Source: Naegleria gruberi (Eukaryota). Taken from it: a DNA stretch of 64,000 nt. Positions 32,523 to 58,697 of this stretch are shown here, piece by piece. Position 1 is the stretch's first letter; every line of letters begins with the position of its first letter. The position numbers and the translations under genes are program-made. The notes below the pieces were generated by a model that saw only the letters and a list, made by a program, of their open reading frames with translations, made no database searches and had not been told where the DNA came from. The stretch is taken from the NCBI GenBank assembly GCA_000004985.1, contig GG738907.1; one strand, given 5' to 3'.

Positions 32523-34733
32523 ATGTGCCAAATCATGATGAGGAGTACTAGTTTCGAAGAAGAAGAGGAAACATCTGATGAGGAACAACAAGAACATACC
32601 AGTCCTATTCATGCTGATGAAGAAGAAACTGCTGAACAAAGTTCCTCCGAAGATGAAGAAGAAGAAATTATGCTAGCAGAAGATGACGATTTATTAACCC
32701 AACAGAATAATCACCATCAGCATCACCCTAACGAAGAAGAAGAAGAAGAGGATTTAAATAATCAACAAGAAGAAGCAGCACCAATTATTGAAGAAGAACA
32801 GGAGGATGAAGATTCCGATTCAACTAAATTATCATCACCTGTTATTAGTACTCATCATAATAATCAACACAACACATCTACAGCTAATAGCAGTAGTGGT
32901 GCTGCTGAGGAATCCATTCAAATTGATGAAGATGATTTAGAGACGCTGAGAAGGGATGATCATATGGAAAATGGTCTTTTGGAATGCGATGAGGAGATGG
33001 ACTACTTGTTGAATGATGAGAAGATCATGATGCCACAAACACCTCTGCTCATTAATAATGATAATTTTACGACGCCAAATAGTGCTGGATCTGTAACTGT
33101 GGCTATGCCTTTTTTGGATGATGTGGATGGTTGTGTGGAATCAAAACCATTGAATGAGAACGAAATAGAGTGTAAATTAGAATGTAATATAGTAACAACA
33201 GAGGAAGTATCAGAGAAAGAAAATGTAGAATTGGCCACTGAGAGCTCAGTTCTACAGATGAATCAGCCAATTGCACATAACTCTGAGAGTTTAATCGAGA
33301 ATCGTCAAACAATTTCTATTGCAGATGAGCAAATGAATGTTTTAGTGATGGAAGATGATCAGATTGTTGTGAATCAAGAAGTAATAGAGAAACCATCTCT
33401 AATTCAACAACAGGAAACCCAACCAAATAACACAGATATCATCTCATCAATTAATTTGGATGAAGATTTAGATATTGAAATGATTAATGACTTCCTGCAA
33501 TCAGAAAAGGGAGCCGATTTGTGTGAAGAACATTCAAAGGAAAATTCCCCTCATGGAGACTCTATCAGTAATCAGAGTATGAATGATTCTTGGAATACCA
33601 ATTACACCACCGATAGTTTAGGTTCAACAATGCACCATCGACAACCAATGCAAGGTTGTACTCCATTGATATCGAGAAAGAACTTTAATCATCATGCTCA
33701 AAGTATTCCACTGGAAGACTTGCTGCAAAATTATGATCATCGAATTGAGTACTCTACATTGGAAATGCTTATTAAGGAGCTTGAGGGAATAGGTGTTTAT
33801 ACAGTCAATAGTTTACCGCTAGTGCCAAAGAAACATATAATGGCTCTTCCAGGTATGGATGATAGATTGTATGAAAATTTGATGGATTCTGCTCAAAGCT
33901 TGGATCCTTCTCAATCCTTTGGATTTTCCACAGCAACACAATTTCTGCACGAGTTTCACACCAAAAGATACAAGGTCACTACTGGATGCACTGCTTTTGA
34001 TGAGTTGATTGGTGGTGGTTTTGAATCCTCCTCAGTGAGTGAACTTTTTGGAGAGTCTAGCTGTGGTAAAACTCAAGTGTGTTTCACACTCTGTTTAACT
34101 GCACAACTACCACTAACTGAAGATGGTCCCTCTGGAAAGGTTTTGTACGTGGATACAATGGGAACATTTAATCCGAGTAGAATTCAGAGTATTGCAGAAA
34201 GATTTTCTAAAGATGATGAGAGAATGACCACCCTCTTCATGAATAATATTTTGAAAGAAAGAATTTATACATCAGATCAATTATTTTCAAATCTCAATAG
34301 AATTACAACTCTTTTGAAAAGTAATAAGGGAAAACCATTCAAATTGATTATTGTTGATAGTGCTGTCAGTGTTTTCAGGTCTGAATATAAGGGAAAGGAT
34401 GAAATCAACATTCGTCAACAATACTTGTTAAAATATTTGGATTCTCTGAACAAACTAGCTGAACAATTTAATATTGCCATAGTAATTACCAATCAAGTTA
34501 TGGACACATTCGATAAGCCACTAATGTACTCACCTTACAAACAAAATACTTCATCTACCATTAAACCAGTTGGAGGACATATTATGGGTCACACCATTCC
34601 AACAAGAATCCAACTTTGTAGAGAGAAGCAGAAGAGAATTGCCAAAGTATTTAAATCTTCAACCAGGCCAGAAGGTGTCTGCAACTTTTCAATACAAGCA
34701 ACAGGTATAACAGATTATGAAGATGTAGACTAG
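32523..34733 (+). CDS. Rad51 paralog (RecA-fold ATPase) with ~430-aa acidic N-terminal extension
   Basis: The C-terminal region TTGCTAFDELIGGGFESSSVSELFGESSCGKTQVCFTLCLTAQLP...GKVLYVDTMGTFNPSRIQSIAERF matches the Rad51 Walker A block [24 protein letters not shown]...GKAMYIDTEGTFRPERL..IAERF. A Walker B-like LIIVDSAVSVFR follows, and an HhH-like segment LEMLIKELEGIGVYTVNSL precedes. The N-terminal half is E/D-rich low complexity. Confidence 0.65.
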   Translation: MCQIMMRSTSFEEEEETSDEEQQEHTSPIHADEEETAEQSSSEDEEEEIMLAEDDDLLTQQNNHHQHHPNEEEEEEDLNNQQEEAAPIIEEEQEDEDSDSTKLSSPVISTHHNNQHNTSTANSSSGAAEESIQIDEDDLETLRRDDHMENGLLECDEEMDYLLNDEKIMMPQTPLLINNDNFTTPNSAGSVTVAMPFLDDVDGCVESKPLNENEIECKLECNIVTTEEVSEKENVELATESSVLQMNQPIAHNSESLIENRQTISIADEQMNVLVMEDDQIVVNQEVIEKPSLIQQQETQPNNTDIISSINLDEDLDIEMINDFLQSEKGADLCEEHSKENSPHGDSISNQSMNDSWNTNYTTDSLGSTMHHRQPMQGCTPLISRKNFNHHAQSIPLEDLLQNYDHRIEYSTLEMLIKELEGIGVYTVNSLPLVPKKHIMALPGMDDRLYENLMDSAQSLDPSQSFGFSTATQFLHEFHTKRYKVTTGCTAFDELIGGGFESSSVSELFGESSCGKTQVCFTLCLTAQLPLTEDGPSGKVLYVDTMGTFNPSRIQSIAERFSKDDERMTTLFMNNILKERIYTSDQLFSNLNRITTLLKSNKGKPFKLIIVDSAVSVFRSEYKGKDEINIRQQYLLKYLDSLNKLAEQFNIAIVITNQVMDTFDKPLMYSPYKQNTSSTIKPVGGHIMGHTIPTRIQLCREKQKRIAKVFKSSTRPEGVCNFSIQATGITDYEDVD

Positions 34734-41763: not shown

Positions 41764-42100
41764 TGCATTGGATTAAGTGATAATCACTTTGTCCAATTGG
41801 ATGACTGTTAAACAGTAGCACTCAGTGCAAGAGAGTGTGAACTTTTAATGGTACTAACAAGAAGAAATTTCTTAGAGGGTAATGAAAGCAAGAATGAAGA
41901 GTGACGATTGGCAATTCTTATATTGTTCTCTCTTTGCTTTGTACTATTATTTTCTCAGAAATTCACAATTGTTCCGATATCTTTCAGTCAACAGCAAATT
42001 CTTCATCAAAAATTTTTCATCAAATATTTTGAATAACCTCAAAAAAACGATTTTCAAATAAAATTTAAAATTATAAAATTTGGATAAAAAAATTGAAAAA

Positions 42101-45100
42101 ATGTCTACGGCTACGACATCATCGAAAAAGAAGTCAAGATCCTCATCATCTTCGGGTGGTGTTGAACGTGGCAAGACCATCAAAAAGTCGAATTATTACT
42201 TGATGGGAGAGCGTGAACCAACCAGTGAAATGTTTCAAACTCATATGGACAAGTTGGTTCAACCTCATGTTTCATCATTCGATGCTTTTGGTAATGAAAT
42301 GATGGAAAATATTGCTAAATTTTTATTTCCACTTCACTTGTTCCCAATTAGAGTCGGAGGTAAGAAAACAGATGATAGTACTACTACTACTCCAAATACT
42401 ACAGCAGCAACAACAACAACCATAACCACAACAACAACTACTCTCAGATACTCAACATATATTGAATCAATGAGTTTATCAAAGCCTGTTGTTGGAGATA
42501 ATTTAGTAGACCAAACTGTTTTATCCGAGAAGAGAATGGATGATGAATCACAACAAACACTAGGTGCTTTTACTTCTTCACAAAAAAGAAAAGGCTTACG
42601 TAAGGAAATGTATCCAAAGGATGCTCGTATTGCTGGTGTTAACTATGGAGGAAGTTTAAAGGCAACAATTTTGTTAAAGAACGAAGAAACAGGAGCCATT
42701 GAACGTATTCCTGATATCCAACTTATGGAAGATTTCCCAGTTATGATTAATTCATCATTCTGTAACTTGCCTAAACTTTCTCCAAAACAAAAGATGTTGC
42801 AAGGTGAAGAAGAACACGAATCTGGTGGTTATTTCGTTGTTAGAGGAAGTGAAGTTGTCTATCGTCTCTTAACACAACAACGTGCCAATTTCCCATTTGC
42901 TATTACACGTCCTTCTTGGATGGGTTATAAGGAAGATTTTACTGATAAAGGTATTTTGGTGAGATGTAGACATCCAAAGACACTTATAACGAGATTGGTA
43001 AATATTCACTACAGAAGAGATGGTGTCGTTTTCATGAGAGCTGGTAATCCAGTGCCATTCTATATTAACATTGTTTTGGCATTGAAAGCTTTGAGAGAAT
43101 GTTCCGATAGAGATTTGTTCTTGCTACTTACTGCTGGTACCAAGAATAAGGTTACTTTGGATCGTGTTGTTGAACTTTTGGGTGATTTTAGAAAGACTTT
43201 CCCAACTGTTCAAACTCGTGAAGATGCCATCATTGCTTTGGGTACAATTTATGATCCACACGGATTGAGAAGATTGGAAGAACCAGTTGATAAGAACAAA
43301 TTAATCAAATCTGGTTATGAAGTTCTTAAAAATATCATTTTACCAATGTTTATTGATGAAGATGCGGATATGGAAACAAAGGAAGATTTGAGAATTACTC
43401 CAACTGCTTCAGAATGTCAAAAGAAATTCGATTTTTTGGTTTATTGTGTTCAAAAATTATACAAATTTGTCGATGGTGAAATTGCTGAGGAAAATTTGGA
43501 CGATTTTGATAACCACGAGCTGTTGACTGTTGGTGAAGTTCTTTCCAACGTTATTCCACTTATTATTTATAACAAGATTCAACTTGCACATGGTACTTGT
43601 GCCAAACTATTGATGAAATCGGCAACTACAATGCAACCAGATATGTTGGAACAAAAATATCTTGCTCTCTTTAGAGACAAGTGTAAGAGTATTCTTTCTA
43701 AGGCATGTCCAAATGATATTAACAGACTTTTCAGTGTTGGTGATGTTTCAGTTTCTGCTCCTTTCCGTCCAGAATTGTCTCAAACTCGTGCTCTCTTTAC
43801 CAAACTTGAAAGAATCAACTTTTTGAGAGTTATTTCTCACTTCCGTGCTACTCACAGAGGTATTGCCTTCTTGGATTCTAATTCAACACGTATGAGAAGA
43901 TTGACACCATCATTCTGGGGGTTCATTTGTCCTGTTCACTCTCCTGATGGTCACTTGTGCGGTCTCGTAAACCACTTGTCACAAACCACTGAAATTGTTA
44001 CACATCAAGCCAAACCAAAGGAATTGAGATCTGTTGTCGAAATGTGTTTGAAATTGGGTATGCTTCCTTCATCTACTGAAAAGTGTATTTCAGTTTCTAT
44101 TGAAGATGAAGCTCCGGTCATGCTCGATGGTGCCATTATTGGTAAGGTTTCACATGATAAATTGCAAAATCTTGCTGATCAATTGAGATATTGCAAGGTT
44201 TCTGGAAAGTATGGATTACCTAAATTCATGGAAATTGCTTGTCAACCAAAGTACTCTGCTATGGATATTCCATATTTGCCACAATTGAACATCTTTACCG
44301 ATATTGCCAGAGCTGTCAGACCAGTCAGATATTTACCAACAGGTCAAGATGAATGGATTGGTAGTGCTGAACAAGTTTTTATGAATATTGCTGTTACTGT
44401 TGAAGATATTAAGCCAAATACTACTCACATGGAAATTGATCCAACTAACTTTATGAGTTTCCTTGGTAATTTGACACCATTCTGTAACTTTAACCAATCT
44501 CCTCGTTGTATTTATCAGTGCCAAATGGCCAAACAATCTATGGCAGCAGTTTTCCACAGTGTTGACCATAGAGTTGATACCAAGTTGTTCGACATGAAAT
44601 TACCACAAAAACCACTCACCAGAACTAAGCATCAAACTGATTTACCTTTCGACGAATTTAACAATGGTTGTAACGCTGTTGTTGCTGTCATTTCTTATAC
44701 AGGTTACGATATGGAAGACGCTATGATTATGAACAAGACATCATATGAAAGAGGTATGATGCACGGTACTGTTTTCAAGACTGAAGATATAGATTTAACT
44801 GAAGGAACAGCTTTCCTTACAAATAGAGTTTTCGACAAGACTGAAATGGATTCTGATTATCAAGCTAAGGAATTTGAAGATTTGGATTATGATGGTCTCC
44901 CAGAAGTTGGTTTACCACTCGATGAAGGATCTATCTTTGCTAATTATTATGATCCTGAAAAGCAAAAATTCATGCCAATGAAATGGAAAGATGTTGACTC
45001 TGCTACTGTACACAGCGTTAAAGTTATTGCAACTGACCCATCTGACTACAAGAAGGTTAAACATGCTTCCATAACTTTCAGACTCAATCGTAACCCAATT

Positions 45101-45919
45101 ATTGGTGACAAGTTTTCATCTAGACACGGTCAAAAGGGTGTCTTGTCCATTTTGTGGCCTCAAGAAGATATGCCTTTCACTGATGGTGGTATTGTCCCTG
45201 ACATTGTTATTAACCCTCACGCTTTCCCTTCACGTATGACTATTGGTATGTTAGTCGAATCAATGTCCTCCAAAGCTGGTGCTTTGCATGGTTACTTCCC
45301 AGATGCTACACCATTCAGTTTCAGCGAAGAAAATACTGCTGTTGATCACTTTGGTGAACAATTAAAGAAGGCAGGTTACAATTATCATGGTAATGAAGTT
45401 ATGTACTCTGGAGCTTTGGGTACAACTTTGAAAGCTGATATTTATATGGGTGTTGTGTACTATCAAAGATTGCGTCACATGGTTTCTGACAAGTATCAAT
45501 GTCGTGTTGGTGGTCCAACTAATGCCATTACTCATCAACCTGTTAAGGGTAGAAAGAAGGCTGGTGGTGTAAGAATGGGTGAAATGGAACGTGATGCTCT
45601 CGTTGCTTATGGTGCTGCTGCTGTTGTTAAGGATCGTTTCTTTGATTGTACAGACTCTTCAACTGCAATTGTTTGTACATGTTGTAACCAAATGAATACC
45701 ATTGTTAAACCTGATATGGGAACTGGAAGTGGTCCAATTGTTAGTGGATCAGGAATTGGAGCTAATTTGGATGAACTGTTATGTTGTGTTTGTAAAACTA
45801 ATCAACATTTGCGAACAATTTACATTCCATACACAACCAAATATCTGCACAGTGAATTGGCTGCTATGGGAGTTAATTTGAAGATTTGTGTTGATGAACA
45901 CACTAGTAGGAATATGTAA
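42101..45919 (+). CDS. rpa2: DNA-directed RNA polymerase I second-largest subunit (RPA2/A135)
   Basis: The Rpb2-family motifs are NGCNAVVAVISYTGYDMEDAMIMNKTSYERG, SSRHGQKGVLSILWPQEDMPFTDGGIVPDIVINPHAFPSRMTIG, GGVRMGEMERDALVAYGAA and a C-terminal Cys4 zinc ribbon. The N-terminal blocks LVQPHVSSFDAF, GGYFVVRGSEVV and YPKDARIAGVNYGGSLKATI match yeast Rpa135 (AVQPHIGSFNAL, GGYFIVNGIDKL), not Rpb2 or Rpc2. The ATG is at 42101; the called ORF begins at an upstream TTG. Confidence 0.85.
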   Translation: MSTATTSSKKKSRSSSSSGGVERGKTIKKSNYYLMGEREPTSEMFQTHMDKLVQPHVSSFDAFGNEMMENIAKFLFPLHLFPIRVGGKKTDDSTTTTPNTTAATTTTITTTTTTLRYSTYIESMSLSKPVVGDNLVDQTVLSEKRMDDESQQTLGAFTSSQKRKGLRKEMYPKDARIAGVNYGGSLKATILLKNEETGAIERIPDIQLMEDFPVMINSSFCNLPKLSPKQKMLQGEEEHESGGYFVVRGSEVVYRLLTQQRANFPFAITRPSWMGYKEDFTDKGILVRCRHPKTLITRLVNIHYRRDGVVFMRAGNPVPFYINIVLALKALRECSDRDLFLLLTAGTKNKVTLDRVVELLGDFRKTFPTVQTREDAIIALGTIYDPHGLRRLEEPVDKNKLIKSGYEVLKNIILPMFIDEDADMETKEDLRITPTASECQKKFDFLVYCVQKLYKFVDGEIAEENLDDFDNHELLTVGEVLSNVIPLIIYNKIQLAHGTCAKLLMKSATTMQPDMLEQKYLALFRDKCKSILSKACPNDINRLFSVGDVSVSAPFRPELSQTRALFTKLERINFLRVISHFRATHRGIAFLDSNSTRMRRLTPSFWGFICPVHSPDGHLCGLVNHLSQTTEIVTHQAKPKELRSVVEMCLKLGMLPSSTEKCISVSIEDEAPVMLDGAIIGKVSHDKLQNLADQLRYCKVSGKYGLPKFMEIACQPKYSAMDIPYLPQLNIFTDIARAVRPVRYLPTGQDEWIGSAEQVFMNIAVTVEDIKPNTTHMEIDPTNFMSFLGNLTPFCNFNQSPRCIYQCQMAKQSMAAVFHSVDHRVDTKLFDMKLPQKPLTRTKHQTDLPFDEFNNGCNAVVAVISYTGYDMEDAMIMNKTSYERGMMHGTVFKTEDIDLTEGTAFLTNRVFDKTEMDSDYQAKEFEDLDYDGLPEVGLPLDEGSIFANYYDPEKQKFMPMKWKDVDSATVHSVKVIATDPSDYKKVKHASITFRLNRNPIIGDKFSSRHGQKGVLSILWPQEDMPFTDGGIVPDIVINPHAFPSRMTIGMLVESMSSKAGALHGYFPDATPFSFSEENTAVDHFGEQLKKAGYNYHGNEVMYSGALGTTLKADIYMGVVYYQRLRHMVSDKYQCRVGGPTNAITHQPVKGRKKAGGVRMGEMERDALVAYGAAAVVKDRFFDCTDSSTAIVCTCCNQMNTIVKPDMGTGSGPIVSGSGIGANLDELLCCVCKTNQHLRTIYIPYTTKYLHSELAAMGVNLKICVDEHTSRNM

Positions 45920-47742: not shown

Positions 47743-50700
47743 CTACAAATCATCAAGATATGACAAGTCATCAAAATCTATTTCTGTTGGAGTATTCTTT
47801 TTTCCTTCATCTGTTTTAGTATTGTCCTGTGTCAATTTGATATCAGAGTTCATTTCACTAAAATTAATCGTTGGTTTAAGTGTTTGGATAGGTTCATTAA
47901 ATGATAAATCCTTTTCCAAGTTTGTTGAACTGGTATCTTTCTCAGGAGTCGGTGTCATGAACTCAAACTCTTCAATAATTTCCACTTCACTTCCTGTTGA
48001 AAGTTTTTTCTTTTTTGGAGTGTTATCTTGAGCTTGAATTTCCTCTTTTTCAGGTAGGGAAATTTGATCTATCTTTCGTTTAGAGCTACTACCCTCTTCC
48101 ATTTCTTTCATAATCTCATCAGCGGCATTAAAATCAACTTCTTCATCGCTGAATTCATACTCATTTTCTTCTTCCGTGGTGTTATTAATATTAGTGGTTG
48201 GCTCTTCAGGTGAACCTGATGGTTTGTTCTCTTCAAAGTCATATTCCATTTCATCTTCATCAACCTCAATTTTATGTTTGTGTCGAACAGCAGAGAGCTT
48301 TTCCAAGTGCTTGTTCTTTTCTTTTGGTTTTGAAACCAAAAGATCTTCACTCAGAATACTGTCATCAATATCATCGTCGTCCAATAAAAGTTGCTTACTA
48401 GGCTTATTGATAGGATGATAACAATGTTTAAACTTGCTTAAAAAGTCAAAATCGTTATTGGCCAAAATAATGTCGCTAAGCCAAATAGAACCTGGAATTT
48501 TTTGGGCATGTCCAATAACTTTGCTCCAATATGATCCTCTCAATAGAGTTTTCATTTTACCAACAATAACCAAGTGATTTCTTGCTCTAGAGAGTGCTAC
48601 ATTCAAACGTTGTTTTTGTTCAATGAAAGCCAATCCGTATTCACTTGTTCTTGATGTTGAAACAAAGACAATATTCTTTTCACCACCTTGGAAGGCATCA
48701 ACAGTACTCACTTTAACTGGCTTTAAATTGTTGGTAATGAATTGAGTTTTAAGGTATGTCTCTTGCGTCTTGTATAAGGCAATGACACCAATATCTTCGT
48801 GTGCAATACCATTTTGAAGCAAGAGTTGAATAAAGTGGATTATAGCCTTGGTTTCAAGTTCATTCTTATACGAGTTGTTTTCTAAAGTTTCAGTTCCATT
48901 TTCACAATCAATTACAAGTACAGGTGGCATTCCAGGAATGAGAGCCTCTCTGTCTTCTTCAGTTATACCATCCACCAGTTTTTTGTCATAGAATAGTTCA
49001 TTGGTAATTCTTGAAATTTTTGGATGGCAACGATATTGTGTTCTAAGCAAGTGAGGTTCACAACCAATATTTGACAATCTGATAAATATTGTCTTTTCAA
49101 GAGAATCTTCCTTATTTTCGCCACTTCTACTACCTGTAAGAGTTGGTGGAAGCTGCAAAGGATCACCAACAGCAACAAATTTCATGCAACTAAATCTAGC
49201 AAGTGGAAGTAAAGCAAGAGGTTCCAAACACTGAGAACTTTCGTCAAGAATGAGAATGGAGAACTTTTGATTTTTTAAAACTTCAAAACCAGTGGCTGCA
49301 CATGTAACTCCAACAACACGGGCATCCTTGATAGATTGCTTTCTGTTTTCATAGACACCACTTTTGAGATCCTTGATAGCTTGCTTGATACCAGCTTCTT
49401 CATCAGCATCAATGTCCTTATCCTTTAACATATCCTGAAGGGATTTGATTTGGTCTTTAACAGATGTGTTCTCAGTGCTAACAGTGTAGGGAAGGACCGA
49501 TTTGGCGATCTTCTTTTGACTACCAACTCTGACAAGATTTTTGTAATTTTCAGTGATAAGACCTTCCAGAATGTTATCTACGGCAACATTAGTAACTGAG
49601 GCAATGAGAATTCTTATTGAAGAGTTGTCTGCCTCATCCAATATTCTACACATAAATAATATGAGAACAATCAATAATGTGGTCTTTCCCGCACCAAAAA
49701 CACCATGAACTAGTTATTGTTAGAATAATCAATTAAAGGAAATTAAAAACATACCTAAACAAATTGGAGAAGAAACATCACCCTTCTCAAACCACTTGGC
49801 ACATCTGTAAATAAGATTACCCTGATCCTCATTAAGCTTGTATTCTTCTATAAATGATTTGGCAGTATTGTATATTTCGTCGTGATCCATTTCCAATTCA
49901 AAAGAAACAACTTGTTGATCGGATGCATCTTGTTTCTCTTCATTATCACCCTTGGATTCATCTTCGGTTGCAGTTTTTTCAATTGGTGGTTTAAATTTTG
50001 TTTTCAATCTCTTTCTGAACAATTCCAGTGATTCTTGTTCTGTTGTACCCAATATTTCAGTTAGGAGTGGTAACTTGAGTGGATCCAATTCTGTCAAGTT
50101 TTCAATCATTTCAAATTCAGTAGAAAAGTTTGGACCTCTAATAGCAAATAGTGTCTCTTGCTCTAAATTGACTCCAAGTCCACTAATAATTTCCAATTCA
50201 ACTTTACCATCCTTGTCAGGTCCATGGAAAACACTTTTGGCAAGTACCAAGTGGCCAGTTTTGTATTGGAAATCCTTAGACTTTGACAATATCCAAATGT
50301 CATCCTTGGCATAAACGGCACTCTTTTCCTTGTTTTCTATTTGTAAGAACCATTGAGTAATGGCAGTCTTCTTTCTTGAAGAACCAAAAGTTTGCTTTAC
50401 AAGATCACAACCAAAATAAAAATGAATTCCATTTCTTCTAAAGAAGGACATTCTATCAAAGTCTCCTGTCTTATTTTCCAAGAAACCATTTCTACTATTT
50501 GTAACAAAGGATGGATGAACATTGTTGGCCCAAGAAAAAAAGTTGCAGGTATCATTCATAGTTGACTTTCCGCATCCATAGAATGGTTTGCCCTTGTTTG
50601 GTCCATCTTTCTTGACAATCTTCAATTTGGCCTTGAGGCTACATTTGCAATTAGGAGCATTATCATTCTTTGGTGCTCCTGCCATTGATCCAGTCTGAGT

Positions 50701-52896
50701 AATCTTACGATAGGTTTTGTAAAAATTATTGGCCAGATTGAACATTTGTAAATTCATTTCCTCAAAGATGGCATCCAAAAAAACAGCCTTATAGTGTTCA
50801 ATAGTTGTGAATTTGTTTGGAACCTCAATAAATCGTTTTGGATGAGTATTGTTCTGTTCATAAAGATCATTCATTTCCATATCTGGAAAGATTATTTCAT
50901 GTTTGGTCCTCTTGAGTTTTTGTACCAATGATAGAATTGGAATATCGGTTGTATTGGAGTGAGATACTGATGATTCTTTTGGAGATTCTTTCTGACCCAT
51001 ACTCAATTGAGTTTGTTTAAATTTCTTATTAGGTGAAACTCTTGTTGGTGGAGCAAACTTTTGAGCGGGAAGAGAGTTTGGTGGAGTAGCATGTTGACAA
51101 GAGGAAGAGGATGATGCAGAAGAAGGAGAAGGAGGAATAAATCTTTGAGGAGGTGTGAAGGTAGTTGAACCACTAGACTTGTTACTGGACACTGATGATG
51201 GAGCTTGAGGAGTTGTGAAATTAGAGGAGCCAGTATCATCATCATCGTCGTCATCGTCCATTAAAAGTTGTCGCTTATGTGGTTGACTTGGTTTTGGTGT
51301 CGATTTCACTGGGGGTTTCACTGTTTGGGTTGGTGGATTAAATGTGGACTTTTTAACTTTTGGTGGACTATCCAATTTCAAATCCTCATCTGAATCTACA
51401 TCAAGATTTTCCAAACTGAGATCAAGTTGTGGGGTTGGTAGTTTTTGTTTTTGTACAATTCTCGAAGCTGACTGAAAGTTTGAGCTGGTATTTACATTAT
51501 TTACACTCGTAAAAGGAGTTGTCTTTTTAGGGATATTGGTTTGTGATTGAATGTTTGGTCTAGAATTTGATTTGGTTTCTGGAATGGAAATCAGACCATC
51601 TTGGAAGTCATCGTCATCCATAAGAAGATCAATTTTTGGTTTGTTGGCTTGGTTGTGAGAAGCTGGCTTACTCATTGATTGTCCTCCTACAGCTCTGTTT
51701 GATGAAGCACTCACGGGAGGGTGCTGTTGTGCCTTAGGTACTTGAATCTCGTCCTCTTCCTCTAATATGTAATCACTTTCATTGTACGGCACCTCCTTTT
51801 CCTCTTCTTCAAATGATGGAGGTCTGTACAGGGCTCTAGTAGGCTTATTTTGATTATTTTCAAATTTACTCTTTAGGAATGAAGCTGTTGAGGAGTGATT
51901 GGAAGTTTCCTTTTCAAACTCGAGTTCAGTAAAATCAAATGTTTCGTCATCCTCTTCGTCGTAGATCTGTGGAGTGGATGATGCCCCTCTTGCATAACTA
52001 GGTTGTTGTTGTTGAGGTGGATTATATCTATTATTTAAATTAGTATTTTGATTGGCAAGGTTTGAAACTTTTTGTTGGTTGACGACCTGCTTCGGAGTAG
52101 CTTGACTAGCACTCTTAAATGATGAAGTATTATTTGCTTGACCGTAACGACTAGTTGGTGTTGTTGTGGCAGAATCATTCTTGAAGAATTTACTTGTTAC
52201 AGCAGGTTTTGTTGATGGAATATCAACATCTCCAAAATCTATTTCACCATCCTCCAAGGAAAACTCATCATCCAAGTCTTGTTGTTGTTGAACAGCTCGT
52301 GCTGGAGGAAGCCTTGAAGTGTTAGTGGAAACAGCTGAAGGTTGTTGTTGTTGGAAAATTGGTGATGGAGTCAATCTGGAAGGCTTTGGATTGCCTTCTT
52401 GTTGATTTCCCTGTTGTTGCTGGTCGCTACCATAATTCTTCTTCCATGAATCATAATTCTCCTTTAGAGGAGGCTTGAATTTCTTGACTGATGTAGTAGT
52501 AGTAGTTGTTCTGGTTATTGTTGGAGTGGTCCGAGAAGGCTGCTGAGAAGATTGGGAAGGCCTTGATTGTTGTGAGGTTGATGTTATTGATGATATATTA
52601 CTATTATTATTATTGCTACTCGATGATGAAGCCTCTGATGATGATGAAATTTCGTCTTCAATTTGAATTTTCAGACTCTTTGTTGTAAATTCCTCTCCAT
52701 TCTCCACATTTGTTATGCCATCACAGTGAGACATGAAAGTTTGCTCCACCTTGTTATTCTTCTCATCGAGAATGATCAATGATTTAGTATCCACATTGTA
52801 CTTTAAAAATCCGTCCTTGTATGATGGAGCCTTCTTTCTCAATTGATTGGTGTAGAGAATTCGGAAGGTTTTAATATTATTAGTATTAGAAGACAT
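47743..52896 (-). CDS. ZGRF1-like protein: N-terminal DUF2439-like region + GRF zinc finger + C-terminal UPF1-like SF1 helicase; 2 exons (49755..52896, 47743..49709; intron 45 nt)
   Basis: N-terminus: FRILYTNQLRKKAPSYKDGFL. The GRF zinc finger is CKCSLKAKLKIVKKDGPNKGKPFYGCG...CNFFSW. Exon 1 ends ...PICL at a gtatgt donor. Exon 2 starts HGVFGAGKTT, which is Walker A. The remaining helicase motifs are ILILDESSQ (II), VAVGDPLQLPP (III), QYRCHPKI (IV), VDAFQGGEKNIVFVS (V) and NVALSRARNHLVIVG (VI). An acidic C-terminal tail follows. Confidence 0.7.
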
Positions 52897-54315: not shown

Positions 54316-57300
54316 TTAAACAGAAGAAACAGTTACTTTCTTTCGATGTGTCAAAAACCATAATCTCAGTCCAAATGCTATACATGCCACAAGTCCCATA
54401 CCTCCAACTATTGGAATACTAATTAAGGCAAATAAGGCATACATGCTATTATCATTGGATTGTGAACAAATATTACTTTTACATCCATCTCCACAATAAT
54501 TAGCTTGGCACTGATCACAATTTGATCCAGTCCAATAACCATCTGCAGAATTGGCTTTACACTGACATATGTTTTGTGAAATGCAAAGTCCGTGACCTCC
54601 ACAAACAGCAGAATTGGTTTTTGGAATTTCAAAACATGTCCAAGAATCTGAATTGCCTGGAGTTTTTGTGGAATTTTGTGTTGTTGATTGAGTAGTATTA
54701 TTTACAAGAGTGTTATTATTACTTGTCGTGGTAGTATTTACATTATTGCCTATAAGTGTATTATTATTTACAATTGTGTTATTTGAAGAGTTAGTATTTG
54801 TAATATTATTATTTGTTATATTGTTTACAGTAGAATTATTATTCAATGACACAGTCTCATTTGTATTCATTGTTGTATTATTCGAATTATTGACAGTAGT
54901 GTTATTTGTAATAGTATTATTTGTAACGGTAGAATTTGAATTAAGTGTTGAGTTTGAAATAGCGTCATTGCTTAATGTTCCATTATTGTTTGGAATTGAA
55001 TTATTGGTATTGGAATTATTCATCTCTAGAGTGGTAGTATTTACAATAATTGAGCAATCCAATCCCTTCCATCCAAATTGACAATCACACTTATTTACAG
55101 TTGAACAGTTTCCATTTCCGGAACACACTGAACTATCATTGGCAAAAATGTTAAAGCAAGAAGGGATGGAACAATCGAATCCAAACCATCCATTAAAGCA
55201 TTGACAAGAATCAGTTGCTGTGCAATTACCATTTCCAGAACAAACTGAGCTCTCATTGCTTACAATTCCAAAACAAGTGGACAATTCACAATTATTTCCA
55301 TAAAAACCAGGATTACAAATGCAAGTATTTGGTGAATTACAAACTCCTCTTGATGAACAAACTTTTGAAGAATTTGAAATAATTCCAAAACATTTAGAGA
55401 ATTCACAAAATTGACCACCGTATAAATCTCCACAATCACAAACATCAGGTGCAAAACAAACACCCAAGCCATTACAGACATTTGGATTGTTGGCAAAGGT
55501 TCCATTGCATGTACGAAGTGTGGATATTACTCTTAGTCGACTATTGTCAGAGTCAATTACAATTATTTCACCATTTCGTCTTAAAATTACTCCAGATGGA
55601 TTATTGATTTTTGAAGCGGAGGCAGTGGTTCCATCTTCACTGTAACCCAAATCACCAGTTCCTGTAATGGTGGTGATATTACCATTAGAGAGAACTCTTC
55701 TAATTCTATTATTGTACGAATCTGCAATCAAGAGTTCATCACCGTCAATGGCAATTCCTTGTGGATATTTGAGTTGTGCATTTGTTGCTTCGATTCCATC
55801 ACCGTTATAACCTAATGTGCCTGTTCCTGCAACAGTTATAATTGTTCCATTAGTAAACATCTTTCTTATTCTATTGTTATAAGTATCTATTTGAATTAGT
55901 TCATCAATTGAAGATTCTTATTTCACTTACCTGCAATGTACATGTTATTACTTGAATCAAATGCGATAGATTGTGGATAATTCAGCTTGGTATTGTTCGG
56001 TAAGAGATAATCACCATTAAAACCAACAGAGCCTCCAATAACTGTGGAAATATTTCCACTTGGTAATATTAGTCTAATTCTATGATTATACGTATCTGTA
56101 ATATAAACAAGATCATTTGAATCAACAGTTACTGAAACTGGGGAATTGAGTTTCGCATTTGTTGCTGGAATTCCATCGCCATTGTAGCCACCTAATCCAA
56201 CTCCAGCTATAGTAAGAATTGTACCATTTGTCAAAATTTTTCTAATTCTATTATTACCAGAATCTGGTAAAGTTTCAATACAAAAAATAATGGAAGATTA
56301 CTTACCTGCAATATAAATATTACCAATGGAATCAAATGCAATTCCTGTTGGTTTGTTAACTTGAGCACTTGTTGCCAAAATTCCATCTCCATTATAACCA
56401 AAAGATCCAGTACCTGCAATGGTTGTGATGGTCCCATCCAAGTACGAAATCTTTCTAACTCTGTGATTGCTTGTATCTGTGAAAATCATTGAAACCTTAA
56501 TAAATTTCACACAATCAACTGAAAACTTACCAGCAATGTAAATATTTCCCAATGAATCCAATGCAGCACCTTTAGGTTTACTCAATGCGCTCAATCTAGA
56601 ATCAACATTTTCACCACAATATGATGGAGAACCTTGTCCAGCTATTGTGGTAATAAATCCATTTGAAATCTTTCTAATTCTGTGATTTCCCTTATCAGCA
56701 ATATATAAATCACTTGTGTTCTTGGCAAAATTCATCAATTCAGGAGAGGCAAGAGTTGCCAAATTGACCGTAGTATTATCAGTAAAACCATACAAACTCG
56801 TTCCTGCAAATGTTGTAATGGTTCCATTGGTAGACACCTTTCTAATTCTATTAGAATCTGAAAAATAAACTTCGCCTAATGATGAAACTGCAACTCCATA
56901 AGGTGAATTAATTTTAGCTAAGGTTGCCAGGCCTCCATCTCCATAATAATCACCTGTTCCAGTACCGGCTATGGTTACAATAGTGCCATTCAATAATACT
57001 TTACGAATTCTGTTATTATTGGTGTCAGCAATATAAATATTGTCTTTCGTATCAACAGCAACACCAAAGGAAAGAAACAAAGTTGCACTCGTAGCTTTCA
57101 TGTTATCTCCATTGTAACCTGTGAAAAAGTAATAAATTAAAAAACAGTTCCGTTAAAATACATACCTTGAGAATTGCTTCCTGCCACTGTTATAATTGTT
57201 CCATTGTTGAACACTTGGCGAATTCTATTATTGTTCACGTCGGTAAAGAGTAATTCTTCCTTGCTATTTAATGTAAGGCCATAAGGATAATTAATAGCTG

Positions 57301-57790
57301 CATTTCTGGCCAATCCATTATCTCCAGAAAAGGAATCAACTCCAGTTCCGACAATGGTTATAATAGTACCATTGGTTAATATCTTTCTAATTCTATTGTT
57401 GCCATTATCACTGAACAACACCTCTCCCATAGAATTAACAACTACTGATACAGGATTTTTCAATTGAGCTCTAATTGCTTCAATTCCATCTCCGTTATAT
57501 CCTGAAAATCCAGTCCCTGCAATTGTTGTAATGGTGCCATTTGGAAATACTTGACGAATTCTGTGATTATTGCTATCTGCAATGAAGAGTGAACCATCTG
57601 GACCCAATGCTGATGATGCAGGATTTGCCAAAGAAGCCTTAATTGCCAAGCCACCATCACAAACACCTCCACCTGCAATTGTTGTGATTCTTCTCAATGA
57701 TGTAGTATTCTGTGCTTGAATTGTTGCAAGAGCGCTTGAAAGTAATAGGAAGACGCTGAGCCAGTAGAATGGATTTTGAGTATTGTACAT
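54316..57790 (-). CDS. Type I transmembrane receptor-like protein: signal peptide + ~14 NHL repeats + tenascin-type EGF repeats + Asn/Thr-rich stalk + TM; 4 exons (57166..57790, 56306..57118, 55931..56263, 54316..55886; introns 47, 42, 44 nt)
   Basis: Signal peptide MYNTQNPFYWLSVFLLLSSALA. The NHL-type repeat ...DSNNHRIRQVFPNGTITTIAGTG..GYNGDG... recurs. All three splice junctions fall within the repeat and restore it: NSQ|G YNGDN, IAG|D SGNNRIRKI, IAG|D TYNNRIRKM. The EGF repeats are CNGLGVCFAPDVCDCGDLYGGQFCE, CSSRGVCNSPNTCICNPGFYGNNCE and further copies. The N/T/S-rich stalk carries many NxT/S sites. The TM is LFALISIPIVGGMGLVACIAFGL, followed by a short basic tail. Confidence 0.65.
54640..55040 (-). 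repeat. Coding Asn/Thr-rich low-complexity tract (aat/act/aca/att repeats) forming the stalk of the NHL-EGF receptor
   Basis: The sequence is dominated by attatt / tgttatt / agtatt units. It translates to NNTITNNTTVNNSNNTTMNTNETVSLNNNSTVNNITNNNITNTNSSNNT. Confidence 0.6.
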
Positions 57791-58187
57791 GGTTTTGATG
57801 TCAACTGGGTTTTTTTCTTTTTGTTTTCCTGTTGCATATATGATTAATAAATGTTCTAGAGATGCAATGAAGTGTAAGAGCTCAAATTCTAGCTGCATCC
57901 AACCAAATTAAGCCCTTAATCATTTGATCTCTATTGGAATGATATATTTGGATTTCCATGGAGATCCTTGGGTTGTTGAGGAAGAGTTCAACACACAACT
58001 CGTCGAACAACATAAGAATCCAAAATTCCTTAGATATCCTACACTACACTCGATCTTATTAGAATTAATAAATAAATCTGTTGAGTTTCCACATGAGTTT
58101 CTCTAATTGTCAACAAATGTCATTGAATTACACAATCATTGCTAGACACATTCATATGATTTATTCAATTCCAAAACAACTTTGAAA

Positions 58188-58697
58188 TTAGACACTGCAA
58201 ATAAAATTAGTGTCAACCCAACCAATAGAGCTTCCAACCAAAACCTTTGTAACATAAATTCCTTGTTCAGTATAAATTGGATCAGACAATACATAACCGA
58301 ATTGACCTTGAACAAATGTGAAAGCAGGCTTTCCATAAAGCAATGGAGTTGAATACACATTCAATGAGCTTCCCTTACAAACAACTACTTTATCACCACC
58401 TCTAAACTCTGACTTGATTGCACACAAATTACTCAACAAGACATCTCCCTGAATGCCATAAACTGAAATTGGAAACATGAGTTTTTCTCTGCCACAGAAG
58501 AAACTTTGACCAATAATTTCGACACGAGTGTTGGCTGGAAGGAGGAGTGTGTAATTGTTGAGATTGCATTTATCATTGTTAATGATTGGTGCAAGTTCTT
58601 CTTTTGCTAAATTGCAAATTTCAACATAGATTGGCTTTCCAATAACTAGAAAACTCAATGCTAAGACGAAACAAGTGAATAGAATTGACTTGAACAT
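58188..58697 (-). CDS. Small secreted Cys-containing protein (hypothetical)
   Basis: A 169-aa ORF opening with ATG in an A-run. Signal peptide MFKSILFTCFVLALSFLVIG. There are 8 Cys. I recognise no family. Confidence 0.4.
   Translation of the reverse strand: MFKSILFTCFVLALSFLVIGKPIYVEICNLAKEELAPIINNDKCNLNNYTLLLPANTRVEIIGQSFFCGREKLMFPISVYGIQGDVLLSNLCAIKSEFRGGDKVVVCKGSSLNVYSTPLLYGKPAFTFVQGQFGYVLSDPIYTEQGIYVTKVLVGSSIGWVDTNFICSV

Follow-up and report, generated by a model that had tools for sequence, protein, structure and literature searches.

Teneurins are type II membrane proteins that carry eight EGF modules and combine an FN-plug, an NHL domain, a YD shell and a toxin domain (PMC13018210). 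The NHL domain of a Bacillus inaquosorum teneurin-like protein (9ifo/9pt5) is the closest solved structure by sequence (E 9e-67) to the protein described here, followed by Pizza designs, metazoan teneurins (~1e-28), SOQ1, NHLRC2, TRIM71 and PknD. This protein is encoded by a single gene at positions 54316–57790, on the minus strand of a 64,000-nucleotide (nt) stretch of Naegleria gruberi contig GG738907.1 (assembly GCA_000004985.1), referred to below as the window. The locus is N. gruberi NAEGRDRAFT_73793, and its family of type I membrane glycoproteins in Heterolobosea has not been characterised. Its product carries a signal-like N terminus, twelve NHL units, four EGF modules of the tenascin/teneurin type, an Asn/Thr-rich stalk, a Cys-rich juxtamembrane module, a membrane anchor and a very short tail. 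We regard the identity of the gene, taken together with this domain architecture, as near certain. The explanation as a whole, which adds a role as an adhesin or co-receptor and a reading of the introns, is probably correct.

Gene structure

Translation in three frames shows that the NHL-type repeats shift frame or meet stop codons at four short GT..AG segments. Removing these as introns leaves five exons and a 3288-nt coding sequence (CDS), which runs from a start codon at 57790 to a TAA stop at 54318–54316 and encodes 1095 residues. This spliced product is 100% identical to the N. gruberi entry XP_002671270.1 / EFC38526.1 / UniProt D2VXL6, publicly named "predicted protein" or "uncharacterized protein". 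An earlier note, made from the sequence without database searches, had placed an NHL/EGF gene at 54316–57790, and the CDS (57790–54316, minus strand) fills exactly this interval. The gene is already publicly annotated but unstudied, and its domains are standard, so the practical value of the assignment is small. Literature searches with the gene identifiers, and for Naegleria with NHL or EGF and Naegleria with teneurin, returned nothing relevant.

All features of the gene lie on the minus strand. Exon 1 (57166–57790; 625 nt) encodes the signal-like N terminus, NHL units 1–3 and part of unit 4, and exon 2 (56531–57118; 588 nt) continues from the remainder of unit 4 to unit 7, where it ends in NIYIA. 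Two short exons follow, each with phase 1 at both ends: exon 3 (56306–56476), whose 171 nt or 57 codons span exactly one repeat period, and exon 4 (55931–56263), whose 333 nt or 111 codons span two. Exon 5 (54316–55886; 1571 nt) carries NHL units 11–12, the EGF modules, the stalk, the Cys-rich module, the transmembrane segment and the tail.

An in-frame ATG upstream, at 57898, was considered as the start codon and rejected; the annotated product begins at 57790, and the longer variant is not in the protein collection. Starting at 57898 would prepend 36 residues, with no stop in between (57791–57898, minus strand). A TATA-like CATATATG sits between the two ATG codons.

Domain architecture

The NHL array covers residues 27–692 (55528–57712), spans all four introns and is supported by Pfam matches, an AlphaFold2 model and fold matches. 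Pfam NHL (PF01436) matches in seven stretches with an E-value of 5.8e-69 (225 bits, cut-off 20), and TEN_NHL matches with 1.6e-59 (202 bits, cut-off 27.1). Twelve N.RIR motifs are spaced 54–57 residues apart. The AlphaFold2 model of residues 19–738, built with 25 homologs, has a mean predicted local distance difference test score of 89.8 and contains 48 strands, which form 12 four-stranded blades. Motif period and model strands thus agree on 12 units, not the roughly 14 repeats counted earlier, and the sixth unit is degenerate.

The six-bladed NHL propellers of NHLRC2 (6g7w), SOQ1 (7djj) and Pizza6 can each be superposed on roughly one half of the model, with template-modelling scores of 0.79–0.86 normalised to the target and ~0.3–0.4 to the query over ~310–350 aligned columns. 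Because single six-bladed structures each match approximately half of the twelve blades, we read the array as two tandem six-bladed beta-propellers, the first predicted to comprise units 1–6 (~57712–56673) and the second units 7–12 (~56672–55528).

Four tandem six-Cys EGF modules follow at residues 699–850 (55054–55509), delimited by Cys positions and Pfam. The spacing C-x10-C-x5-C-x5-C-x-C-x8-C is identical in the four modules, which repeat with a period of 39 residues. EGF_Teneurin (E 1.8e-13; 50.7 bits, cut-off 24.3) and EGF_2 (E 7e-10; 39.5 bits, cut-off 22.1) both score above their cut-offs, and the tenascin-type EGF modules described in the earlier note are therefore confirmed. By composition, residues 853–985 (54649–55047) form a low-complexity stalk rich in Asn, Thr and Ser, with dense N-x-S/T sequons. 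The N-glycosylatable Asn/Thr stalk of the earlier note is likewise upheld by 51 Asn and 34 Thr among the 160 residues of the span 826–985, and by 26 of the protein's 44 sequons falling within residues 826–990.

Between stalk and membrane lies a Cys-rich module with 10 Cys (residues 990–1046; 54466–54636), in which a six-Cys EGF-like unit precedes a C-x2-C-x4-C-x3-C-x4-C segment. Its Pfam EGF_Teneurin match reaches only E 0.83, and the module is putatively EGF-like, as judged from its Cys spacing. The highest Kyte–Doolittle window of the protein (residues 1057–1075) falls within a predicted transmembrane segment at approximately residues 1055–1084 (54441–54352); segment and cytoplasmic tail together occupy 54319–54441. 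The tail has 11–16 residues and ends in -SSV. This ending (54319–54351, minus strand) resembles a class I PDZ-binding motif, the sole hint of an intracellular partner.

At the opposite end, residues 1 to ~22 (57790–57725) form a hydrophobic N terminus, MYNTQNPFYWLSVFLLLSSALA|TIQ, that resembles a signal peptide. The signal peptide and transmembrane segment that the earlier note expected in the real product thus both have counterparts here, in a hydrophobic N-terminal segment and a C-terminal transmembrane segment. NHL units begin directly behind this N terminus, and apart from it only the stretch at residues 1055–1084 is strongly hydrophobic. These features suggest a single-pass surface protein that enters the secretory pathway and adopts type I topology.

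Homologs and the origin of the NHL block

The best full-length match in the protein search is the N. lovaniensis protein C9374_014632 (P0014), which aligns to 96% of the query at 37% identity; no close ortholog was found in this search. Full-length NHL+EGF homologs are also encoded on amoeba-like metagenome contigs (P0039 and P0094). All three resemble the N. gruberi protein in beginning with a signal peptide and ending in a hydrophobic C-terminal anchor, and in having ~12 NHL units, of which a middle one is degenerate, as well as tandem EGF modules of the tenascin/teneurin type. They differ in being paralogs rather than orthologs, in having many more EGF modules (P0014 is 1879 residues long) and in lacking the Asn/Thr stalk. 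P0014 and P0094 are intronless, P0039 has one predicted intron at a site shared with the N. gruberi gene (see below), and none of the three has been characterised. A metagenome scan with the EGF region returned only distant relatives (29–42% identity).

When the NHL/EGF junction served as the query of a second protein search, most of the matches were short NHL proteins from bacteria. Across the NHL block as a whole (650 residues), bacterial or metagenomic proteins match best, at up to 46–47% identity, as compared with 41–43% for the Naegleria paralogs, and many bacterial proteins hold a collinear block of ~660 residues and 12 units at 40–47% identity. These bacterial multi-NHL surface proteins, automatically named "YvrE" or NHL repeat-containing protein, share the period of 55–57 residues and the repeat consensus. 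They differ in having no EGF modules and no introns, in partner domains that include Ig, FN3 and type IX secretion system (T9SS) sorting domains, and in prokaryotic modes of secretion and anchoring.

The NHL block is marginally closer to bacterial arrays than to the paralogs of its own genus, which weakly hints at a bacterial origin. The block would then have been acquired from bacteria and fused to eukaryotic EGF and transmembrane modules in Heterolobosea, in a separate event that parallels how teneurins arose. Besides the higher identity to bacterial and metagenomic blocks, the match to the B. inaquosorum teneurin-like protein, far stronger than that to metazoan teneurins (E 9e-67 versus ~1e-28), favours this scenario. 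However, similarity is inflated between repeats so close to a consensus, and surface proteins with NHL repeats are also present in Acrasis and on other eukaryote-like contigs. A blade-by-blade comparison with the bacterial 12-unit blocks gives almost no positional orthology, so that the array is not datable in this way. We consider acquisition from bacteria doubtful on this evidence.

Proposed function

The N-terminal signal sequence would route the protein into the secretory pathway, and a single C-terminal helix would anchor it in the membrane with a tail of 11–16 residues. Two six-bladed NHL propellers of bacterial sequence type would be displayed at the distal end, held off the membrane by the four EGF modules, the N-glycosylated Asn/Thr stalk of ~135 residues and the Cys-rich juxtamembrane module. 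Ligand contact would be made by the propeller faces, and the extracellular partner may be the substratum, the surface of prey or another cell. Since the tail has no signalling domain, signalling would need a partner protein, and so small a tail points to an adhesin or ligand-binding co-receptor rather than a self-contained signalling receptor. The case for such a surface role is evenly balanced. If it holds, the family could bear on the adhesion of free-living and pathogenic Naegleria to substrates or prey.

Several points weigh against this picture. The two-propeller layout comes from fold matches and strand counts rather than from coordinates. Both the signal peptide and the transmembrane helix are predicted from hydrophobicity only, and the n-region of the predicted signal has no basic residue. 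Intron 2 is removed on the strength of its consensus splice sites, of the YIAD motif that its excision restores and of the published gene annotation. In addition, six-bladed propellers of the NHL and related types can have enzymatic activity, and the protein could be a membrane-tethered ecto-enzyme with catalytic, lactonase- or lyase-like propellers. Its bacterial homologs are auto-annotated as "sugar lactone lactonase YvrE", and Pfam Vgb_lyase matches residues 50–203 with 57 bits (cut-off 50). The lyase match, however, is overlain by NHL and TEN_NHL matches of far higher score, the JGI names were assigned automatically, and the nearest solved structures (bacterial teneurin-like proteins, teneurins, NHLRC2, SOQ1 and Pizza) are non-catalytic. 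We regard an enzymatic function as very improbable.

Sequence variation between two alleles

A metagenome contig of 3688 nt (L012; ENA ERZ929261, PRJEB11402) corresponds to positions 57822–54139 of the window at 98.45% identity and implies that an N. gruberi-like amoeba was present in its source sample. None of the four introns is missing from it, and every donor and acceptor site is intact. Relative to the reference it has one additional codon at residue 33, together with 27 synonymous and 19 non-synonymous changes. The Nei–Gojobori ratio of non-synonymous to synonymous substitution rates (dN/dS) between the two alleles is 0.20 both overall and in the NHL region; it falls to 0.05 in the EGF modules and reaches 0.68 in the stalk, where five of the non-synonymous differences are grouped at residues 958–962. 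Intron 2 is identical in both alleles, and intron 3 has five differences in 42 nt, against ~1.5% divergence in exons.

The intact introns and low dN/dS of the second allele indicate that the gene is functional and under purifying selection, and that the introns are stable features of the locus. We considered the possibility of a pseudogene, which is ruled out by the intact open reading frame (ORF) in both alleles and the dN/dS of 0.20. The suggestion of a self/non-self or bacterial-recognition receptor made in the earlier note is speculation: the tail comprises only 11–16 residues, and a dN/dS of 0.20 in the propellers reflects purifying rather than diversifying selection. An excess of non-synonymous variation was not found in the NHL region in this comparison, which has low power with two alleles, and no clustered paralogs were found elsewhere in the 64-kb window, a single window that likewise gives low power.

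Intron positions and their origin

All four introns interrupt the NHL array in phase 1. Intron 1 (57119–57165; 47 nt, GTATGT..CACAG) splits a Gly codon (SQ|G|YNGD) in the long loop of unit 4, at a repeat position unlike that of the other three. Introns 2, 3 and 4 split the Asp codon (G|AT) of the YIA|D..N.R[IV]RK motif in units 7, 8 and 10, respectively. Intron 2 (56477–56530; 54 nt, GTAAGT..CACAG) interrupts NIYIA|D|TSNHRVRK, intron 3 (56264–56305; 42 nt, GTAAGT..ACCAG) interrupts NIYIA|D|SGNNRIRK and holds a stop codon, and intron 4 (55887–55930; 44 nt, GTAAGT..AATAG) interrupts NMYIA|D|TYNNRIRK. In the AlphaFold2 model, the shared site lies between blade strands 2 and 3 and not at a blade boundary. 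The earlier note had described three introns of 42–47 nt, all at one repeat site in phase 1. Phase 1 holds for every intron and the shared codon holds for introns 2–4, but there are four introns, intron 1 lies elsewhere, and the lengths range from 42 to 54 nt. The junction itself is YIA|D; the "G" of the IAG|D given before arises when the Asp codon's first base is translated together with the start of the intron.

The lengths are ordinary for this genome, as eight other candidate short introns in the window measure 42–52 nt. Intron 2 is in frame and stop-free, and its retention would add 18 residues to blade 7. The annotated product has intron 2 removed, and a variant retaining it is not in the protein collection; regulated retention is nevertheless conceivable.

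The shared position of introns 2–4 is non-random and a real coincidence. Uniform placement gives a probability of 9e-5 for three or more of the four introns sharing a repeat phase. The value rises to 0.003–0.015 when insertion is confined to G|R, to WG|R or to phase-1 G|R sites, three site sets that all include the four junctions seen in the gene. An AG|R null gives 0.02, but AG|R sites omit some of the four junctions.

One way to produce this pattern is the duplication of exons, proposed in the earlier note as the route by which the propeller expanded. An ancestral NHL unit with a phase-1 intron before the Asp of D..N.RIRK would have been duplicated in tandem, with most of the introns lost afterwards. 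The identity of codon and phase at the three sites, the 1–1 symmetry of exons 3 and 4 at one and two repeat periods (171 and 333 nt), and the improbability of the coincidence by chance all fit this history. The repeat-by-repeat alignment that the earlier note had called for, however, gives no signal of exon-unit duplication. Units are 33–61% identical at the protein level, and third-codon identity is 31–57%, near saturation for this base composition. In the unit identity matrices, the intron-flanked units neither cluster nor are each other's nearest relatives. Mutual alignments of introns 2–4 are no better than shuffles (z −1.1 to −0.2), and the introns share nothing beyond their splice sites. 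Recent exon duplication is thus not supported.

Evidence from the homologs bears on an older duplication. The P0014 gene is intronless (5640 nt, equal to 1879 codons plus a stop), yet it has a degenerate sixth unit at the same ordinal position. The homolog loci L002, L005 and L006 are uninterrupted at the shared site, and the sole intron of an Acrasis kona NHL gene lies in its signal peptide. A candidate intron upstream of the L006/L007 ORF had no convincing placement and was dropped. The same multi-unit block of ~660 residues occurs at 40–47% identity in bacteria, which lack spliceosomal introns, and many independent losses would be required if every unit had once held an intron. We therefore treat descent from a duplicated intron-bearing unit as tentative.

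Alternatively, the array was intronless, and introns were inserted independently at TAYATTGCWG|AT or spread into this sequence by reverse splicing or repair. The three shared sites have the common exonic context ATTGC[A/T]G|AT[A/T]C, the intron sequences are unrelated, as separate events would give, and the sampled paralogs have no introns at the site, except for one unit on contig L003. The array also seems older than the split between paralogs, although the blade-level positional correspondence with P0014 that bears on this is weak (~3 standard deviations after double-centring). Parallel gain faces difficulties of its own. Units 1, 4, 6 and 11 share the ATTGCWG|A context and remain intron-free. 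Nulls limited to proto-splice sites still give probabilities of only 0.003–0.02, which calls for a very strong preference for the site, and neither a mechanism nor an introner-like element is evident. This explanation, too, is held tentatively.

The exceptional unit belongs to the metagenomic homolog P0039 (32% identical; contig L003, GC content 37%). Its ORF ends in ...EIYFSGKINRI*, and removal of a 43-nt GTAAGA..ATAG segment (L003 8312–8354, phase 1) restores EIYFS|D|SNG.... The frame past this predicted intron continues through another blade, five EGF modules, a transmembrane helix and a tail. P0039 (L003 2920–9328, plus strand) is thus really ~2121 residues long and was split at the 43-nt intron by prokaryote-style gene calling; in full, it comprises a signal peptide, an NHL array, an EGF array, a second NHL cluster, further EGF modules, a transmembrane helix and a tail of 42 residues. 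This intron was spotted by eye through the ORF ending YFSGK..*, and a regular-expression scan of all fetched loci for same-site introns returned only the N. gruberi gene and its allele.

The same NHL repeat site is therefore predicted to bear an intron in another gene of another organism. Together with the same-site introns of the N. gruberi gene, this means that the site is either old or a preferred insertion point. A single same-site intron in a 32%-identical homolog fits an old intron kept sporadically; introns 2–4 would accordingly be either an old repeat-unit intron kept in a few units or the outcome of repeated insertion at ATTGCWG|AT. We give these two explanations, an ancient site and a hotspot, similar weight. 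With three hits here and one in a distant homolog, the phase-1 site at YIA/Asp might be a recurrent intron target in heterolobosean NHL genes, which we think unlikely on present evidence. If it were so, the NHL family would offer a natural test bed for sequence-directed intron gain, by proto-splice-site insertion or reverse splicing, in an intron-poor lineage. The recurrence of same-site introns in a second organism makes them a compact case for telling ancient intron retention from parallel gain.

Genomic context

The window also contains a gene for the RNA polymerase I subunit RPA2 (42080–45919), 75% identical to the N. fowleri protein, a neighbour in keeping with the assignment of the locus to N. 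gruberi. Gene order differs at the N. fowleri RPA2 locus, and no ortholog of the NHL/EGF gene was found there by synteny within 10 kb. A Rad51-domain gene (32523–34733, plus strand) has an N-terminal extension of ~480 residues with no Pfam match. Its N. fowleri counterpart (L004 15366–18416; 880 residues) combines a weak NHL match with Rad51 and follows RPA2 and an OTU gene, a placement from which we conclude that local gene order differs between the two Naegleria species.

On the minus strand, two adjacent ORFs at 47743–52896 encode a ZGRF1-like helicase, one ORF with the ZGRF1 N-terminal domain and a GRF zinc finger and the other with AAA_11/AAA_12. They are joined by a 45-nt GTATGT..TAG intron (49754–49710), one of the eight candidate short introns counted above, which fits the 42–54-nt intron class of this genome. 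The upstream neighbour of the NHL/EGF gene (58188–58697, minus strand) encodes a 169-residue protein with a signal-like N terminus, for which no convincing family match was found (RcsF, E 0.017, below cut-off).

Relation to known propeller receptors

Among proteins that carry NHL or similar propellers, the TRIM-NHL class is set apart by its partners: no RING, B-box or filamin match was found by Pfam in the N. gruberi protein, which instead has a signal-like N terminus and extracellular-type modules. PknD offers a simpler surface sensor (PDB 1rwi, E 2e-16), in which an extracellular six-bladed NHL propeller, presumed to bind a ligand, sits on a single transmembrane segment. PknD has one propeller and an intracellular Ser/Thr kinase, whereas the N. 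gruberi protein has neither a kinase nor any other intracellular domain.

The YWTD propellers of the LDL-receptor family (LRP6, LRP2), recovered as fold matches, form an analogous arrangement of tandem six-bladed propellers and EGF modules on a type I receptor. The likeness is one of fold and architecture only, as Ldl_recept_b (YWTD, PF00058) is not among the Pfam matches. In the LDL-receptor family the EGF modules alternate with propellers, and the tails inside the cell contain motifs for signalling or endocytosis.

Teneurins and bacterial teneurin-like proteins (PDB 6fb3, 9ifo) come closest. They also contain a six-bladed NHL propeller and are the top PDB matches in both sequence and fold, and teneurins share teneurin-type EGF modules, such that the Pfam models TEN_NHL, EGF_Teneurin and EGF_TEN all match the N. 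gruberi protein. The resemblance to teneurins with reversed domain order, remarked on in the earlier note, thus stands for the domain types and for the teneurin-derived Pfam and structure matches, but it does not extend to a YD shell, a toxin or the membrane topology. A Pfam scan of the whole protein lists just NHL-type and EGF-type families plus two minor matches; RHS/YD, FN-plug, TTR and Tox-GHH or other toxin domains were not found in it, and the PDB matches to teneurins are limited to their NHL region. With only NHL-type and EGF-type modules, which stand in reverse order and in an inverted membrane orientation, the protein is not a teneurin, judging by its domain content, and resembles teneurins in parts only.

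A teneurin has type II topology and a large intracellular domain at its N terminus, and carries eight EGF modules before a single NHL propeller, an FN-plug, a YD shell and ABD/Tox-GHH (PMC13018210). The N. gruberi protein, by comparison, would present two propellers in type I orientation, with NHL before EGF and a minimal tail. This heterolobosean family would have independently joined a bacterial-type NHL array and tenascin/teneurin-type EGF modules on a membrane anchor, in an arrangement convergent with the supposed assembly of teneurins.

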